From: Gallionellaceae bacterium
GTDB taxonomy: Bacteria > Pseudomonadota > Gammaproteobacteria > Burkholderiales > Gallionellaceae
Length of the DNA: 64,000 nt
Direction of reading: 5' to 3'
Assembly (NCBI GenBank): GCA_027448945.1
Contig: DAIDMQ010000037.1
Coordinates: 49,791 to 113,790, forward strand
This document shows positions 51,403 through 58,394 of the stretch, piece after piece; positions within the stretch are counted from its first letter, which is position 1, and each line of letters opens with the position of its first letter. Under the pieces are notes generated by a model. That model saw nothing but the letters and a program-made list of their open reading frames with translations, was not told the DNA's origin and did not search any database. A program made the position numbers and the translations under genes.

Positions 51403-52569
51403 TCACTGCGTTTGGAGTTCCAAGCTGAGCGTGTCTTCCATGTTATTCATCAATAATTTCTGGTGCAGAGACAGCTCCTTGCCGAGCTTGCGATGGTTGT
51501 TCATCGCCTCACGACTCGAAAAATCCACCATCAGGCTGTAGCGGGCTTGATCTGTTTTGGCGATATGCACACGACGCACTCCGGGACGCATCTCGATAGC
51601 GGCAACCGTCTCGCCCAACAGCACGGGTATTTCATTTTCCGCGATGGCAGATGAAATATTGAACAGCGTGAGATGCCGCACTTCGGCCCAAGGCTTGCAT
51701 TGCGCCAACACTTCGGCCGCCCGCCCCCCGGCTCCCCACAAACGCATGCAGCGCTCGGTCTCAACGCGCACCACCTCGCTGACATGGTCGGGCAAGTTGC
51801 CATAGTCGGCCTTGCGGTCCGCCGCGCATTGCTCGCGCACGCTGCGCGCGGCAACCTCGGCCAATGCGGTGTAGTAATTGATCTTGGCCACACCATGAGA
51901 AATGAGCTTGCGATATTGCTCATCTGACAAACCGGTGCCGCCGTGTATCACCAAAGGGATGGAAGTCGCCTCGTGTATCTTCGCCAATCGGTTGTAATCC
52001 AACTTGGGCATCCCCTTCATACGACCATGCACAGTGCCTATCGACACCGCCAGACTATCCACACCCGTGCGCGCTACAAAACCAGCCGCTTCCGCAGCCG
52101 AGGTATAGCTAAGCTCTCCCGGATGCAGTTTGGCGCTCTCGCCCGTCACACCCGGCACATATCCCAGCTCACCCTCCACCGTCACGCCGCAGGCATGTGC
52201 GATGTTGACCAACTCACGGGTCTGCCAAAGATTGTCAGAGAAAGGCAACATGGAAGTGTCCACCATCACTCCGTTACAGCCCGCACGTATTGCACGCCCG
52301 GCATGCTCATGACTACTGCCATGATCGAAGTTGATTGCCACTGGCACAGCGGCACGTTTGGCTGCGGCCAGCACGGCAGGCATCAGCAGCTCAAAATCGT
52401 AATGGCAGAAATGCGCTTCGATCAGATTCAGTACCACAGGTGCGCGGCAGTTTTCAGCCGCCTGCATGATGCCGGACAGGAAGCGTAGATCGACCACGCC
52501 GAAAGCGCCTAGCGCGTAGTTATGGCGGTAAGCGTGGTTAAGCATGTCATTGAGATGGACGAGTGCCAT
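51403..52569 (-). CDS. Class II (Zn) fructose-bisphosphate aldolase-family protein with C-terminal Dabb-like extension
   Basis: NFDHG, VMVD.S, VEGELG.V, LAVSIGTVHG, PLVIHGGTG, KINY; extra 97-aa alpha/beta tail. Confidence 0.85.
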   Translation of the reverse strand: MALVHLNDMLNHAYRHNYALGAFGVVDLRFLSGIMQAAENCRAPVVLNLIEAHFCHYDFELLMPAVLAAAKRAAVPVAINFDHGSSHEHAGRAIRAGCNGVMVDTSMLPFSDNLWQTRELVNIAHACGVTVEGELGYVPGVTGESAKLHPGELSYTSAAEAAGFVARTGVDSLAVSIGTVHGRMKGMPKLDYNRLAKIHEATSIPLVIHGGTGLSDEQYRKLISHGVAKINYYTALAEVAARSVREQCAADRKADYGNLPDHVSEVVRVETERCMRLWGAGGRAAEVLAQCKPWAEVRHLTLFNISSAIAENEIPVLLGETVAAIEMRPGVRRVHIAKTDQARYSLMVDFSSREAMNNHRKLGKELSLHQKLLMNNMEDTLSLELQTQ

Positions 52570-52577
52570 GATGTCCC

Positions 52578-53099
52578 CTAGCGCGGGGTAAGCCCCGCCA
52601 GTGCCGCCTCGGCACTCTGCTCATAACGGCTACGCTCCTGACGCGCGGCCTCTTCCAAAGCCTGATTGATGTCCGGATATTTCAGCGCGAGTATGCGGGC
52701 CGCCAACATCGCCGCATTCTTGGCGCCGTCCACCGCGACTGTCGCGACCGGCACACCGGGCGGCATCTGCACCGTGGACAACAAAGCATCCAGACCCGAC
52801 ATCACACCGCCCGAAAGCGGCAGACCGATCACCGGCAGACGCGTATGTCCGGCGATGACGCCGGCCAGATGCGCCGCAACCCCGGCACAACCGACCAAGA
52901 CCTGCACATTCTCCCTATGGGCGCGCTCCAGATACTTAAACACCTTGTCCGGGGTGCGATGCGCGGAGGCAACGATGATTTCACTGCTGATGCCCAGATC
53001 ACTCAGGGTATCGCGGACCTTGACCACGGTGGGCAGGTCGGTGGGGCTGCCGGTAAGGATGCCCACCATGATGGCGGGGCGCATATTGTTTGCTGACAT
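52578..53099 (-). CDS. purE: N5-carboxyaminoimidazole ribonucleotide mutase (class I PurE, divergent)
   Basis: SAHRTP, AGVAAHLAGV, PVIGLP, LLSTVQMPPGVPVATV, NAAMLA. Confidence 0.9.
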   Translation of the reverse strand: MSANNMRPAIMVGILTGSPTDLPTVVKVRDTLSDLGISSEIIVASAHRTPDKVFKYLERAHRENVQVLVGCAGVAAHLAGVIAGHTRLPVIGLPLSGGVMSGLDALLSTVQMPPGVPVATVAVDGAKNAAMLAARILALKYPDINQALEEAARQERSRYEQSAEAALAGLTPR

Positions 53100-53133
53100 T
53101 GTTTAACTCCTCATCAATTTCAAGAACCACGCT

Positions 53134-53772
53134 TTACTCGAATGCGATGAAACGATTGCTGCCCGGGTCATAGCGCATCAGCTCGATGCGCTCCATATCG
53201 AAATACCAACCGTGTAGCGTCAGCTTCTTTTGCATGACCCGTTCCAATACCCAGGGAAAAGTCAGCAGATTGTCCAGCGACACTAAAATCGCTTCCTGTT
53301 CGCAGGCGCGCAGACATGCCTCTTGCGAATCGCCCTGCATACGCGCCAACACGCGGTTGCGCGCATGCGCCGCGACGCGCATCCAGTCTTTGACAAAACT
53401 GTTGGCACGCGCCGTCGCGTTGTCCTGCTGCATCAGCCCGCGTATGCCACCGCAGTGCGAATGCCCCAACACGATGATGTTTTCCACTGCCAGATCACAG
53501 ACCGCGAACTCCAGTGCCGCACTGGTGCCGTGAAAACTGCCGCCGGTCTCATAGGGCGGCACCAGATTGGCGACGTTGCGTATGGTGAACAGATCACCGG
53601 GATCGCAATCGGTGACGATGGCCGGATCGACCCGCGAATCACAGCAGCCCACCACCACAGTCTTGGGGGCTTGCCCCTGCGTGGCGAGGCGCTCGAACAA
53701 ATCGTGATGCTGCGCATACCGCCCGCCGCGAAAGCGCTTGAAGCCATCCACCAGTTTTTCAATATGACTCAT
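53134..53772 (-). CDS. Beta-class carbonic anhydrase
   Basis: CCDSRV (CxDxR), GDLFTIRNVAN, HSHCGG (HxxC), LHGWYF. Confidence 0.94.
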   Translation of the reverse strand: MSHIEKLVDGFKRFRGGRYAQHHDLFERLATQGQAPKTVVVGCCDSRVDPAIVTDCDPGDLFTIRNVANLVPPYETGGSFHGTSAALEFAVCDLAVENIIVLGHSHCGGIRGLMQQDNATARANSFVKDWMRVAAHARNRVLARMQGDSQEACLRACEQEAILVSLDNLLTFPWVLERVMQKKLTLHGWYFDMERIELMRYDPGSNRFIAFE

Positions 53773-53837
53773 CGCAGCCCCCTTCACTACTTTTATCGGC
53801 TATCGTCGCAGCGTGCATAAAACCGTAGAATGCCGTC

Positions 53838-54251
53838 ATGGAACTCACTTGTTATCGCGACGCGGCACTGTCACAAGAAGCGCGCACCCTGCCCGCCGCC
53901 ACCTACAATCTTGCCATCACCCTACTGGAACAGACCCCGCACGGTTGCCTGTTCGTCCCGATACGCAGCATGCAATACCTTGCCGTCATAGATCACGAGG
54001 AATTCGTGTTCATCGACGGCATGCGCAAATGCTGGATAGACATTGCATGGCGGCAATTTCATCCACAACAGCGCCACGCGCTCAACGAGGCGGTGAATTA
54101 TCTGGCGGTGAATTACCAAGCCGGCAGCGCCGCGCTCATGCCGCGCCTGCAAGCCGAATTGGCACGCGCATTAACCGCCTTGTCCCTGCAACAACGACCG
54201 CTGCAACCCGCACGGGTACTCAAATTTCCCGGCACTCGGGCCCGTTCCTAA
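53838..54251 (+). CDS. Hypothetical protein
   Basis: 137-aa ORF with protein-like composition (LFVPIRSMQYLAVID.EEFVFID), divergent from the carbonic anhydrase gene. Confidence 0.7.
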   Translation: MELTCYRDAALSQEARTLPAATYNLAITLLEQTPHGCLFVPIRSMQYLAVIDHEEFVFIDGMRKCWIDIAWRQFHPQQRHALNEAVNYLAVNYQAGSAALMPRLQAELARALTALSLQQRPLQPARVLKFPGTRARS

Positions 54252-54550
54252 TCGTCGTCTCCCAGCTCGGCATCCCAACCTTGTTCCTTGGCATGTTTGA
54301 TCGCAGCCTCATGGATGCTCATGTAGCGCGCCAACAGATCGGGTGGCAGATGGCTGGGTAGATGGCCGTACTTTTCCCACTCTTCATGGGTTTTCTCATA
54401 CAGATTCTGTATCTGTCCCGCCGTCCATCCTGCACAATCCTCGCTGTCGGGAATGAAGCCAAACACCCAACCGTCTTTAACGATTTGAGCCAAGTTAGTC
54501 ATGCCGCCGTTTTCGTCGTTGTGCAGTCCTGCGTATGTGATTTGAGTCAT
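54248..54550 (-). CDS. Hypothetical protein downstream of cbbO
   Basis: 100-aa acidic, Trp-rich ORF co-oriented with cbbLSQO. Confidence 0.72.
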   Translation of the reverse strand: MTQITYAGLHNDENGGMTNLAQIVKDGWVFGFIPDSEDCAGWTAGQIQNLYEKTHEEWEKYGHLPSHLPPDLLARYMSIHEAAIKHAKEQGWDAELGDDD

Positions 54551-54651: not shown

Positions 54652-56979
54652 TCAGCGTGTCAAACCCGCATAAAGCAAAGGCAGTTTCTCCGGCAAGCGT
54701 GCTACTTGGTCCACCACCATATAATTCTTTGCGCCGAAGATGCGTGAAACATATTCATCCGCACGCGGATCCAAACTCATGCAGTAAGTGAGTATTCCAT
54801 TGCGTCCCGCTTCTTCGACCGACTTTTTTGCGTCGTGACGGAGATATTGAGGGTCGCGTATATCCACATCGGCAGGTTCGCCATCGGTGATCACCAGCAG
54901 CAATTTTTTCGCCGAGCGTTGACGCTTCAAATAATGCGTGGCGTGGCGTATTGCCGCCCCCATACGCGTCGAAAGTTGCCCGGTCATGCCCGCCAATCTG
55001 GCCTTGGGGACTTCGTTATAAGGTTGGTCGAAGTCTTTGAAGCGTTGATATTCCACGCCATGCCGGCCATCCGAACAAAAGCCGTGTATCGCAAACGGGT
55101 CGCCCACTTTGTTGATCGCATCCGCCAGCAACACCGTCGCCTGACGCGTCAAATCAAGCACGGTGTGTTCTTGTCCGGCCACTTTGTCGTTGGTGGATTC
55201 GGACAGATCCAGCAGTACCATCACCGAGATATCGCGGATTTTGCGCACGCTGCGCATCATGATGCGCGGGTCCGGCTGCATCCCCATGCGTATATCCATA
55301 CTGCCTGCGATTGCCGCATTGATATCGAGTTCGTCGCCATCCTCCAGTTTGCGTATCCGTGTTACGCCTTGCGGCTGCATCGCATCGAGCAAGAATTTCA
55401 TTTGCGCGATGACACGCTTGTGTTGTGCGGCGATGTCGTCGATGACTTGCAAATCCCCGACCTTGGGGCGCTTCTCCAACACCGTCGTCCAACTCGGGCG
55501 CTCCAGTTGTATCTGGTAATCCCACTCGGCGTAGTGATACGGATCGGAAACCGGCTCTTTGCCTTCCATCTCGTTATAAGACTTGCCCATGTCTTCGTAA
55601 GGGCGCAACTCCGTGCCGAGCACCCAGATTTCTTGCGCGTCATCGCCGGCCAGTTCGCAGTCCAGTTCATTGACCATTTCCATCACGCTGACGTACTTGC
55701 GCACTTGCTTGACGGTCTCGTAACCCGCCGCCGCAGCCTGATCGGAATCGAATTCTTCAAACGCCCAGAAGTAGCGATTGTCGTCGCGGTACGGAACAGT
55801 CAGCTCATCGCTACGCGGATTGAAGGCTATGCCTTTGTCCTTCAATTTGTGCGCCAGTTGCACGCCTATTTCCCATGACACCAAATTGTCCTGCAAACGC
55901 TCTGCCGCTTGGGCAAACAACACACGACCCTCGGCTACCCACGCGTCTTCATCCGCATAATCCGCATCCAGCAGCGCACGCGCCAAACGGTTCAGATAAT
56001 CCCCCACGCTGGCATTCTGTGTGGCAGTAATGGTGTGGAATTTTGCCCACAGCGGACGCAAGCCGGGCATACGGCGTATCGACAAAGTTTCCACACGCGC
56101 ATCTTCAATGACCGCGATCACCGCCATCTGCAATGGATTGAGCGACTCGGCGGAAATCGGCGTGCCGGTCTCGGCGATATGTGCCGCGCTGTGTGCGGCA
56201 GCCGCGCGATACAACTCCAGCCCCGTGATGCCCTCGAAATCATCATAGGCATCGGGCAAGTGCATCAAATAACCTTCTATGTAAGGCCTGTAGCCGACCC
56301 GAGTTTCAAAATCTCCCGATGTCGGGCGCAAAAAGAAATCACGTCCCCACAAGGCGCGCAGATACATGTTGATGCGTCGCTGCACATCGACGAACAGCGT
56401 GCCCTTGCGCTCTTTTTGCAGCATTGCCAGCGACTCTTTGGAGTTCAGACTGAAATAGCTGAACTGCTCCTCATAGTTGGTGCGATGCGCATGTGCGCCC
56501 CACAACGCCCAGCGGCGCAAACCGCCCAGTGTAAGCTGGCTGAACAGCACATCGAGCTTGTCCAGCATCGGACGCACGCCGCGCGGGGCTTTGGATACCA
56601 GGGAATCGACGAATTGCAGATAATTCAAAAACAGTTGCGCGTCGCCCAAACGACGGGCCGCCGTGGCTGAGGTGGCGAGCATCAACTCGATCACCGAAGC
56701 GGAGGTTTTGGACGTTAGGTTCATCGCGGTCTGCGCCAGATCGACGATCACTTCTTCGCCTATTTCTTTGCTCACCTGCGGCGCTTCTTCCAACCAGGCA
56801 ATAACCAGGCCTGACCCGCGTCCGAGTTGATTGATTGCCGAGGCCGCCTTCAAATAGTTATCCAGGCCCCGCGAAGAAAACGCTTTAGTCGCCTCGCCCC
56901 AAGATGCATGCAAAACTTGCACTGCTTCGTGCGGCAGTCCGTCTAATAACGCTTGGTAGTCTTCCAGTTTTATAGACAT
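54652..56979 (-). CDS. cbbO: Rubisco activase adaptor CbbO (VWA domain)
   Basis: C-terminal VWA domain with MIDAS DLSES, STRMG and ITDGEP; follows cbbQ. Confidence 0.95.
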   Translation of the reverse strand: MSIKLEDYQALLDGLPHEAVQVLHASWGEATKAFSSRGLDNYLKAASAINQLGRGSGLVIAWLEEAPQVSKEIGEEVIVDLAQTAMNLTSKTSASVIELMLATSATAARRLGDAQLFLNYLQFVDSLVSKAPRGVRPMLDKLDVLFSQLTLGGLRRWALWGAHAHRTNYEEQFSYFSLNSKESLAMLQKERKGTLFVDVQRRINMYLRALWGRDFFLRPTSGDFETRVGYRPYIEGYLMHLPDAYDDFEGITGLELYRAAAAHSAAHIAETGTPISAESLNPLQMAVIAVIEDARVETLSIRRMPGLRPLWAKFHTITATQNASVGDYLNRLARALLDADYADEDAWVAEGRVLFAQAAERLQDNLVSWEIGVQLAHKLKDKGIAFNPRSDELTVPYRDDNRYFWAFEEFDSDQAAAAGYETVKQVRKYVSVMEMVNELDCELAGDDAQEIWVLGTELRPYEDMGKSYNEMEGKEPVSDPYHYAEWDYQIQLERPSWTTVLEKRPKVGDLQVIDDIAAQHKRVIAQMKFLLDAMQPQGVTRIRKLEDGDELDINAAIAGSMDIRMGMQPDPRIMMRSVRKIRDISVMVLLDLSESTNDKVAGQEHTVLDLTRQATVLLADAINKVGDPFAIHGFCSDGRHGVEYQRFKDFDQPYNEVPKARLAGMTGQLSTRMGAAIRHATHYLKRQRSAKKLLLVITDGEPADVDIRDPQYLRHDAKKSVEEAGRNGILTYCMSLDPRADEYVSRIFGAKNYMVVDQVARLPEKLPLLYAGLTR

Positions 56980-57036: not shown

Positions 57037-57849
57037 TTATTGATCACTAAAAAATGTAGTGACAGCGGCATCCAGTGCATCCCGCATGTCGGGATCGTCG
57101 GTGATTGGGCGTACTAGGGCAACACGACAAGCCGTCAGCGGGGGAACATTTTTGGCGATCAGGGAACCTGCGTACACCAACATACGCGTGGAAATACCTT
57201 CATCCAAACCGTGGCCTTTAAGATTGCGCGCACGCTCCGCGATGTTCACCAGCTTGCCCGCGACTTCCATGGACACGCCGGTTTCATGCACCACGATCTC
57301 GCTCTCCGCCTGATGCGCGGGGTAGTTGAAGTCCAGTCCGCCAAATCGTTGTTTGGTCGACTGCTTCAAGTCTTTCATCAAACTTTGGTAACCGGGGTTG
57401 TAGGAGATCACCAGACTGAAATCCGGATGTGCATGCAGCAATTCGCCCTTTTTTTCCAAAGGCAATACGCGACGATTATCGGTCAGCGGATGAATCACCA
57501 CCGTCGTGTCTTGTCGTGCTTCGACCACTTCATCGAGATAGCAGATCGCACCGTAACGTGCCGCGATTGCGAGCGGCCCGTCTTGCCAGCGCGTGCCGTT
57601 GGCATCCAACAAAAAGCGACCCACCAAATCGGAAGCGGTCATATCTTCGTTGCAAGCCACGGTAATCAGCGGCTTGCCCAAACGCCACGCCATATGCTCG
57701 ACGAAACGCGTCTTGCCGCAACCCGTCGGGCCTTTGAGCATCATCGGTATACGCACGGAGTAAGTTGCGTCAAACACTTCGACTTCATCACCCACGGGAC
57801 GATAGTAAGGTTCTTTTTTAATCAAATACTGCTCGATGATGTCAGTCAT
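57037..57849 (-). CDS. cbbQ: Rubisco activase AAA+ ATPase CbbQ (MoxR family)
   Basis: GPTGCGKT (Walker A), [12 protein letters not shown] (Walker B), YNPGYQ, STKQRF. Start at MTDII. Confidence 0.96.
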
Positions 57850-57973
57850 GGTTAGCTCCATCCAGATTAAAACACGGGGGCGTAAAGAATCGCGCGGCAA
57901 TCATTTACGTCCCGATACGGACTTTAAAAAGTCCCCCACCGGATCAGCAGCGGGGGCCAAGGGAGTGATGCGG

Positions 57974-58330
57974 TTAAACGGTTTTGCCTCGGTAAATCAC
58001 CATGGCAGCACCCTGACTCTGCTTGAAGTTGTCATAGCCGACCAAGCGAACGTGATTGTTCGGGTTGGCCTTCTTGCAAGCGGCAGCTTCCGCCACCACG
58101 CGCGCCACGTCGGTTTCACCAAACATCGGCAACTTCCACATATACCAGTAGTTATCCATCAGATTTTCCGGCTCGGTGTGTTCAATCGCCGGGTTAAAAC
58201 CTTTGGAGATAAGGTATTTAACTTGTTTGTTGATGTTGTCATCGCTCATCGCAGGCAAGTAAGAGAAAGTCTCGAACTTGCGGCTGGCTGGGTCAGACAC
58301 GCGGGATTTGTAATCTTGCATTTCGCTCAT
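57974..58330 (-). CDS. cbbS: Rubisco small subunit (form IA)
   Basis: [36 protein letters not shown]. Confidence 0.98.
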
Positions 58331-58394
58331 TTTATTTTCCTTTAAGTTATCTGGTCGCTGGTGCAACCGTGCCTATGCACGGTTGCGGATTGGC

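Follow-up and report, generated by a model that had tools for sequence, protein, structure and literature searches.

A carbonic anhydrase, PurE and aldolase trio beside form I Rubisco in a Gallionellaceae genome without purK: a probable reduced form of a purine-carboxylation module

Introduction

To our knowledge, the carboxylation of 5-aminoimidazole ribonucleotide (AIR) is the only CO2-fixing step of purine synthesis. In the class I route, as in Escherichia coli and Acetobacter aceti, PurK uses bicarbonate and ATP to form N5-carboxyaminoimidazole ribonucleotide (N5-CAIR), from which PurE makes carboxyaminoimidazole ribonucleotide (CAIR). PurE alone carboxylates AIR at high CO2, and its overexpression rescues an E. 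coli purK deletion; autotrophs without purK are thought to need high CO2, and class I-like PurE without PurK is known from the curation of archaeal genomes and has been argued for Chlorobiota and acetogens (PMC3261824, PMC10880623). In Synechococcus PCC 7942, purK is linked to the rbc/ccm region and purK mutants need high CO2, according to the account of Schwarz et al. (1992) given in PMC10880623. Here we describe a 64,000-nucleotide stretch of DNA (hereafter the window) from contig DAIDMQ010000037.1 of a Gallionellaceae bacterium (assembly GCA_027448945.1), in which genes for a beta-class carbonic anhydrase (CA), a divergent PurE (PurE2) and a class II aldolase stand together near a form I Rubisco cluster.

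Results

The trio consists of three intact open reading frames (ORFs), the last of which encodes two domains:

53134-53772, minus strand: beta-class carbonic anhydrase (PF00484, E 5.9e-46)
52578-53099, minus strand: PurE2, a PurE paralog of 173 aa (TIGR01162, 174.8 bits)
51403-52569, minus strand: class II ketose-bisphosphate aldolase (residues 1-285) with a C-terminal Dabb/ABM-like domain, 388 aa in all (PF01116, E 2.2e-78)
51406-51729, minus strand: the predicted Dabb/ABM domain, the last approximately 105 residues of the aldolase (AlphaFold2 model and Foldseek)

As a preliminary description made from the sequence had reported, the genes are co-oriented and tightly spaced, with 34 nt between the CA gene and purE2 and 8 nt between purE2 and the aldolase gene. 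PurE2 passes the equivalog cut-off of TIGR01162 (174.8 against 149.6 bits). The solved proteins closest to it are all PurEs, the best being that of Thermotoga maritima (1o4v), to which its P-loop, SAHR and AAHL motifs align. All catalytic motifs are intact, namely a TGSPTD P-loop, the SAHR 40s loop, an AAHLAGV 70s loop and QMPPGVPVAT, and the characterisation of the protein as a class I (AAHL) but divergent PurE holds. Class II PurE enzymes carry a 70s loop of the SNGLG type where class I enzymes have AAHL; the loop of PurE2 is of the latter kind, and the PurK partner of a class I PurE is absent from its genome. The P-loop reads GSPND in 60 of 65 PurE2 copies and GSPTD in the window copy. In a quick tree (the careful maximum-likelihood tree is unfinished), PurE2 forms a distinct clade on a long stem, with 99% support in the Shimodaira-Hasegawa-like approximate likelihood ratio test (SH-aLRT). 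It stands apart from the ordinary betaproteobacterial PurEs, which split into purK-linked and purK-less branches that cut across families. In its deep branching, PurE2 is tentatively nearest to Elusimicrobiota- and Bacillota-like PurEs.

The absence of purK, claimed for the window, is true of the whole genome: in the 2.45 Mb assembly, which is 99.98% complete, a profile search with TIGR01161 gave no match above the cut-off. purT gives the best TIGR01161 match (its score on TIGR01142 is 582 bits), followed by two matches within reading frames of 1073 aa. Of a separate purEK pair elsewhere, only the purE half exists: a second, canonical purE (206 bits) adjoins purC on another contig (C35), in the order cbbO-fbp-purE-purC-CA, with overlapping reading frames for purC and the beta-class CA. 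The cbbO of this cluster is of the form II type that follows cbbM-cbbQ in relatives, and both Rubisco loci of the organism thus carry AIR-carboxylation genes. The PurE encoded on C35 also reads AAHLAGV and shares 46% identity with PurE2. The genome has one purC, found only in the C35 cluster, and exactly two PF00484 genes, both of which adjoin purE or purC. Two class II aldolases (PF01116) are encoded, the one outside the trio being of the ordinary long cbbA type and located on C35.

A scan of species-representative genomes revealed 65 loci that encode PurE2 orthologs (74-94% identical), from Gallionella, Sideroxydans, Sulfuricella, Sulfurimicrobium and related metagenome-assembled genomes (MAGs). 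At the Gallionellaceae and Sulfuricellaceae loci with enough flank, purE2 adjoins cbbO and lies directly downstream of it in all but one. Two arrangements recur, cbbLSQO-orf100-(orf137)-(purC)-(CA)-purE2-ald and cbbM-cbbQ-cbbO-purE2 followed by fbp-purC-CA, and some MAGs have one PurE2 copy per Rubisco operon. A co-occurrence of the trio with cbbLSQO, put forward for survey at the outset, is seen most clearly for purE2, which is conserved after cbbO at form I and form II sites alike; the other parts of the fuller module, purC-CA-purE2-ald, are optional. Among the 121 genomes of the window's family, PurE2 is present in 18, purK in 15 and cbbO in 109, and within the window's genus PurE2 is patchy (4 of 22 genomes). 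The purC-less arrangement of the window is kept in a separate MAG (locus L006) at 91-94% protein identity.

purK is absent from 22 of the 23 other PurE2 carriers searched, the exception being a bin with 6% contamination. We also searched for purE in 18 other carriers, namely the family's 17 carriers apart from the present genome and, from the order sample described below, Sulfuricella sp. T08. PurE2 is the sole TIGR01162 match in 12 of them, ten of which are at least 97% complete, and it is likewise the sole purE in three of the four carriers outside the Gallionellaceae and Sulfuricellaceae. Because free-living autotrophs must make purines, this gene content implies that PurE2 must be a working enzyme of the step from AIR to CAIR, and it makes a repurposed fold unlikely.

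The CA scores 157 bits against PF00484 (cut-off 25.7). Its zinc motifs CxDxR and HxxC read CCDSR and HSHCGG, with the zinc ligands and the Asp-Arg dyad present, and its ATG at 53772 is preceded by a Shine-Dalgarno-like AAGGGGG stretch (GTG at 53787 is an alternative start). The protein shares 66-94% identity with the CA found at the same position in relatives or with the CA half of a PurC::CA protein. In relatives, purC and then CA often precede purE2, and at eight loci the two form a single ORF of approximately 506 aa (SAICAR_synt E 1e-74, Pro_CA E 1e-46). Approximately 27 protein clusters (90% identity, from independent assemblies) carry both Pfam domains and are named only 'SAICAR synthase' or 'carbonic anhydrase'. 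One of the eight fused loci, fbp-purE-purC::CA, lies at a form II site in the window's genus (locus L083, G126:C2), which indicates that either the origin or the spread of the purC::CA fusion extended to both kinds of Rubisco site. No purC remnant is present in the 460 bp that precede the CA gene in the window, the space being filled by the opposite-strand orf137. Comparison with the relatives suggests that this purC copy was lost from the window as well as from L006, its relative of 94% identity, and that the window represents an unfused, purC-less reduced form.

Four MAGs labelled Pseudomonadales, Rhodocyclaceae or Klebsiella (L062, L064, L066 and L067) contain a cluster of the order purC-purE2-betaCA-MFS with a divergent LysR gene. 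No Rubisco was found in the fetched 5-14 kb around these clusters, and none of the four MAGs has a purK match. Their CA is only 28-32% identical to that of the window. Recruitment of the module on two occasions, with different CAs, argues that the CA serves PurE and PurC and belongs to the purine step, not only to Rubisco.

To relate the 70s loop to PurK, genomes of an order sample and of an independent phylum-wide sample (loci L076-L189) were grouped by the presence of purK, and the loop of their PurEs was then read. The order sample comprised 151 genomes, 32 of which were under the purK cut-off; two of these (G043 and G094) were just under it and probably possess purK. The order-sample genomes without purK include an unpublished one, G023, which is used for no other claim. 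In the order sample, all 28 PurEs adjoining purK read HLPGM, and all 25 PurEs of purK-less genomes read AAHL(A/G)G(V/A/N). The phylum-wide sample gave AAHLPGM in 31/31 PurEs of purK-containing genomes and AAHLAG(V/A/M) in 27/28 of purK-less genomes, the single exception reading AAHLPGV. Over these two samples of Pseudomonadota together, HLPGM was found in 59/59 PurEs of genomes with purK and AAHL(A/G)G(V/A/N/M) in 52/53 of genomes without it. AAHLAGV is present in all 66 PurE2 sequences with a readable loop. Outside the phylum, five genomes with PurEs nearest to PurE2 gave no purK match, and four of these PurEs show AAHLAG; the AG form of the loop also occurs in a solved structure, PDB 3trh. 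From these alignments, the AHLAG loop appears to be a near-perfect marker of purK-less genomes. The proposal of a PurK-independent purine carboxylation linked to a CA gains support from the lack of purK, the coupling and fusion of purC and CA, the Rubisco-free triad with another CA, the carriers with PurE2 as sole purE, and the AHLAG loop.

A third PurE type, 'PurE3' (GSDSDLP...AAHLAG), was observed in 12 of the 151 order-sample genomes (L091-L099, for example L094:7009-7491). G089, a purK-containing genome of a family other than the window's, has a 'PurE3'. Exclusivity of 'PurE3' to purK-less genomes was considered and rejected, as eight of its order-sample carriers lack purK and four possess it. 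It was linked to none of the queried genes.

The aldolase matches PF01116 over residues 5-282 with 264 bits. In its catalytic part it most resembles short class II fructose-1,6-bisphosphate (FBP) aldolases, the best solved structure being 7ncc (E 5e-51), to which the metal-binding motifs DH, VHG and HGGTG align. No NCBIfam equivalog cut-off is reached (best NF005284, 270 against 406 bits). The C-terminal part is conserved among orthologs, and an AlphaFold2 model using 24 orthologs (predicted local distance difference test, pLDDT, 86.8) predicts a dimeric alpha+beta barrel (Dabb/ABM) with a ferredoxin-like beta-alpha-beta-beta-alpha-beta order. Foldseek relates this model to 1q53, 1si9, 2qyc and 3bde (E approximately 5e-5, template modelling score 0.67-0.75), its relatives comprising At3g17210, SP1, Dabb and ABM proteins; the best Pfam score, for ABM, lies below the family cut-off (E 0.089, 13.4 against 23.1 bits).

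In G238 the aldolase gene is present without purE2, and in G089 it accompanies purK; of the purE2 clusters at form II sites, nearly all lack it (L012 is the one exception seen). Its occurrence without purE2 and with purK identifies it as a variable passenger of the form I cluster, and the idea that it forms an integral link from the trio to Calvin-cycle sugar phosphates finds no support. Because it co-occurs with fbp and Rubisco genes, sits with purK in G089 and is mostly missing at form II sites, the most economical reading is that it is probably a Calvin-cycle isoenzyme acting on FBP and sedoheptulose-1,7-bisphosphate (SBP).

On the upstream side of the trio, the window continues with the following genes:

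53838-54251, plus strand: orf137, 137 aa, conserved, divergent from the CA gene and convergent with orf100
54248-54550, minus strand: orf100, 100 aa, a conserved ORF directly after cbbO
54652-56979, minus strand: cbbO, Rubisco activase adaptor with a VWA domain (69-94% identity to the gene following cbbQ in relatives)
57037-57900, minus strand: cbbQ, AAA+ Rubisco activase (CbbQ_C E 1.5e-33, and AAA_5)
57974-58366, minus strand: cbbS, assigned from position and similarity only
58395-59831, minus strand: cbbL, form I Rubisco (NF003252, 803 bits; position and 74-99% identity as in relatives)
59981-60931, plus strand: divergent LysR regulator, CbbR-like (best NCBIfam match CbbR, 258 bits, under the cut-off of that model)

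The divergent position of the LysR regulator is conserved in relatives. At the other end of the trio, a convergent TonB-like gene abuts the stop of the aldolase gene. The preliminary placement of the trio next to cbbO is correct as regards its nearness to cbbLSQO and inexact as regards contact, since orf100 on the minus strand and orf137 on the plus strand lie between. The gap from orf137 to the trio is approximately 50-65 bp. Because the opposite-strand orf137 intervenes, the trio is probably a separate transcription unit in this genome.

Copies of orf137 (52-83% identical, with 30 invariant alignment columns) occur at more than 30 related loci, and the gene stays with form I clusters of the type cbbLSQO-orf100 even where the purE2 trio is absent. 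It matched no Pfam family and gave no Atlas match, and its low-confidence model (pLDDT 68) yielded no fold match. It was also seen in G053, next to purC and purK, and in G197, next to a cbbO of form II. orf100 follows cbbO at almost every form I locus (47-98% identity) and matched no Pfam or NCBIfam family; it may be the counterpart of 'cbbN', a small ORF in the cbb operons of Nitrosomonas. Separately, a gene for a TerC-family membrane protein lies between purE2 and fbp in a form II cluster of the Sideroxydans type (L016:7559-8518), and a TerC-like gene stands ahead of purE-purK in G104 and close to purK in G263.

Discussion

On balance, we consider it probable that the trio is a reduced copy of a module, purC-CA-purE2(-ald), which in Gallionellaceae and Sulfuricellaceae is carried on Rubisco operons of the cbbQO type and would enable AIR carboxylation without PurK. 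Based on the gene content, we propose the following hypothetical scheme, in which (i) PurE2 acts as a genuine PurK-independent purine enzyme, with a class I sequence and an AAHL-A-G-V 70s loop that replaces AAHL-P-G-M; (ii) in the absence of PurK, the carboxyl group of AIR would have to come from dissolved CO2, by way of N5-CAIR that forms spontaneously or in a direct reaction on the enzyme; (iii) the co-encoded CA would equilibrate CO2 rapidly, where it is consumed, with the larger pool of bicarbonate in the cytosol; (iv) PurC, here encoded in the second cluster only, would trap CAIR with ATP and thereby pull the unfavourable equilibrium. According to this scheme, the Dabb-fused class II aldolase, as a putative FBP/SBP isoenzyme of the Calvin cycle, would travel with the form I Rubisco cluster.

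Several points weigh against this proposal, whose support comes from gene content and sequence comparison. The module in the window has no purC of its own, and PurE2 is redundant with the second AG-type PurE. purK is missing from 106 of the 121 family genomes irrespective of PurE2, which shows that PurE2 is not what permits purK loss. The loop counts come from genomes related to one another and are not independent events; although they span more than 25 families, they are phylogenetically uncorrected. purE, with or without purK and purC, stands beside cbbO in purK-containing lineages too (G089, G106, G184 and G048). The G089 locus (L111, G089:C38:9300-21728) has the order cbbO-CA-purE-purK-ald, with an ordinary PurE and PurK instead of PurE2 and with a CA and an aldolase 71% and 55% identical to those of the window. 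This linkage with Rubisco and CA in purK-containing lineages suggests that it is older than the loss of purK, and the CA could be there for PurK, by way of bicarbonate and possibly as its original role, or for Rubisco. In most purK-less lineages elsewhere, three beta-CA protein queries of the order and phylum samples detected no beta-CA beside purE, and the CA is thus not a general requirement; with these queries, CA adjacency was seen only in Gallionellaceae, in family f40 and in PurE2 clusters. Consensus scans for promoters and terminators between 51000 and 54800 gave nothing above shuffled expectation. Finally, the closest form I clusters of the same genus (G264 and G225, with cbbO 88-89% identical) lack the trio but keep orf100 and orf137.

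A contrast of purK loss with PurE2 inside the family was of no use (106 of 121 genomes without purK, PurE2 in 18). The idea that genomes without purK generally have a CA gene beside purE was rejected, such adjacency being found at 0/19 other purK-less loci in the order sample and 0/28 in the phylum sample.

Another explanation is that the CA acts in the service of Rubisco, like the cytosolic CAs of other Calvin-cycle bacteria without carboxysomes, and that the purine genes are there through CbbR co-regulation of CO2-consuming steps or through inherited synteny, with no specific coupling of CA and PurE. It agrees with the position of the trio in a form I Rubisco cluster, with the placement of purE, purK and purC beside cbbO in several families regardless of purK status, and with the way in which CA, ald and purC come and go between relatives. 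We nevertheless regard it as unlikely, in view of the PurC::CA fusion proteins, of the purC-purE2-CA cluster without nearby Rubisco and with an unrelated CA lineage, and of the location of both beta-CAs of this genome beside purE or purC and not beside cbbL or cbbM. Less likely still is that the trio, now redundant and of little effect, remains from a form I Rubisco island that was acquired horizontally and has lost its purC, the work being done by the housekeeping purE-purC-CA cluster. Such a history would fit the missing purC remnant between orf137 and the CA gene, the existence of a second AG-type purE with purC and CA, the trio-less clusters of G264 and G225 and the patchiness of PurE2 in the genus; it is at odds with three intact ORFs that retain their catalytic motifs and tight spacing, and with the maintenance of the purC-less arrangement in L006. 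A repurposing of PurE2 to (de)carboxylate another substrate, in the manner of LarB, a PurE-like NaAD carboxylase/hydrolase (for example a Rubisco-related metabolite, or in an activase role), which the preliminary description had allowed for and which the long stem of the clade, the constant position right after cbbO and the unusual P-loop might suggest, is very improbable, because PurE2 is the sole purE of most carriers searched and these must make purines, its AIR/CAIR-binding motifs are all intact, it adjoins purC in relatives, and it scores 43.5 bits against a cut-off of 175 on the LarB model NF033503.

Beyond the reduced purC-CA-purE2 module that we favour for this locus, we tentatively raise a broader idea, which is possible though rather doubtful at present. 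PurE2, 'PurE3' and those ordinary proteobacterial PurEs that form the purK-less branch, all taken as bearing the AAHL-A-G-V loop, might constitute a distinct and widespread group of self-sufficient AIR carboxylases with class I sequences, in which the Pro-to-Ala and Met-to-Val exchanges in the 70s loop act as the switch. In Gallionellaceae and Sulfuricellaceae, such an enzyme might operate within a CA-PurC-PurE2 metabolon that passes CO2 to AIR and traps CAIR, which would save ATP and tie expression to that of Rubisco. If the loop signature holds more widely, PurK dependence could be read from a single gene, which would improve annotation, since all these proteins are now named N5-CAIR mutase, and would point to the residues that decide the need for PurK. 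Such residues matter for PurE and PurK as targets of antibacterials and for the engineering of purine synthesis at a lower ATP cost in hosts that fix CO2. The module itself offers a concrete and testable answer to the question of how purK-less organisms carboxylate AIR at ordinary CO2, in an ecologically important group, the iron- and sulfur-oxidising chemolithoautotrophs of groundwater and sediments.

In the literature, we found no description of a dedicated purC-CA-purE2 module, of a PurC::CA fusion or of a loop signature that separates PurK-dependent from PurK-independent PurEs, and the module and the signature appear to be undescribed. The trio had been announced as an undescribed CO2-supply module; because CO2-dependent AIR carboxylation without PurK is already published (PMC3261824, PMC10880623), this wording applies to the dedicated module alone. 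Compared with the class I PurEs of E. coli and A. aceti (1qcz, 1u11), which work with PurK, PurE2 shares fold and family, P-loop, SAHR and AAHL. It differs from them in a genome without PurK, in the loop AAHLAGV instead of AAHLPGM, and in being encoded with a CA (and in relatives with purC) beside Rubisco instead of in a purEK operon. With the class II PurE of Treponema denticola and the PurE domain of human PAICS it would share the PurK-independent, CO2-using route proposed here, and PAICS is also a PurC fusion; in contrast, PurE2 has the class I AAHL loop, and the fusion partner of PurC in our relatives is the CA and not PurE. As in Synechococcus PCC 7942, AIR carboxylation is tied to a CO2-fixation locus, here judged from the genes alone; whereas the cyanobacterium keeps PurK and uses bicarbonate, PurK is gone here and a CA is present. 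The proposed ATP-free, CO2-linked carboxylation of AIR is the same as that put forward for the PurK-less PurEs of methanogens, Desulfurococcales, Chlorobiota and acetogens. For those organisms the high CO2 of their habitats is the whole explanation, whereas the Rubisco operons of these microaerophilic chemolithoautotrophs combine a distinct PurE clade with a dedicated CA that is sometimes fused to PurC.

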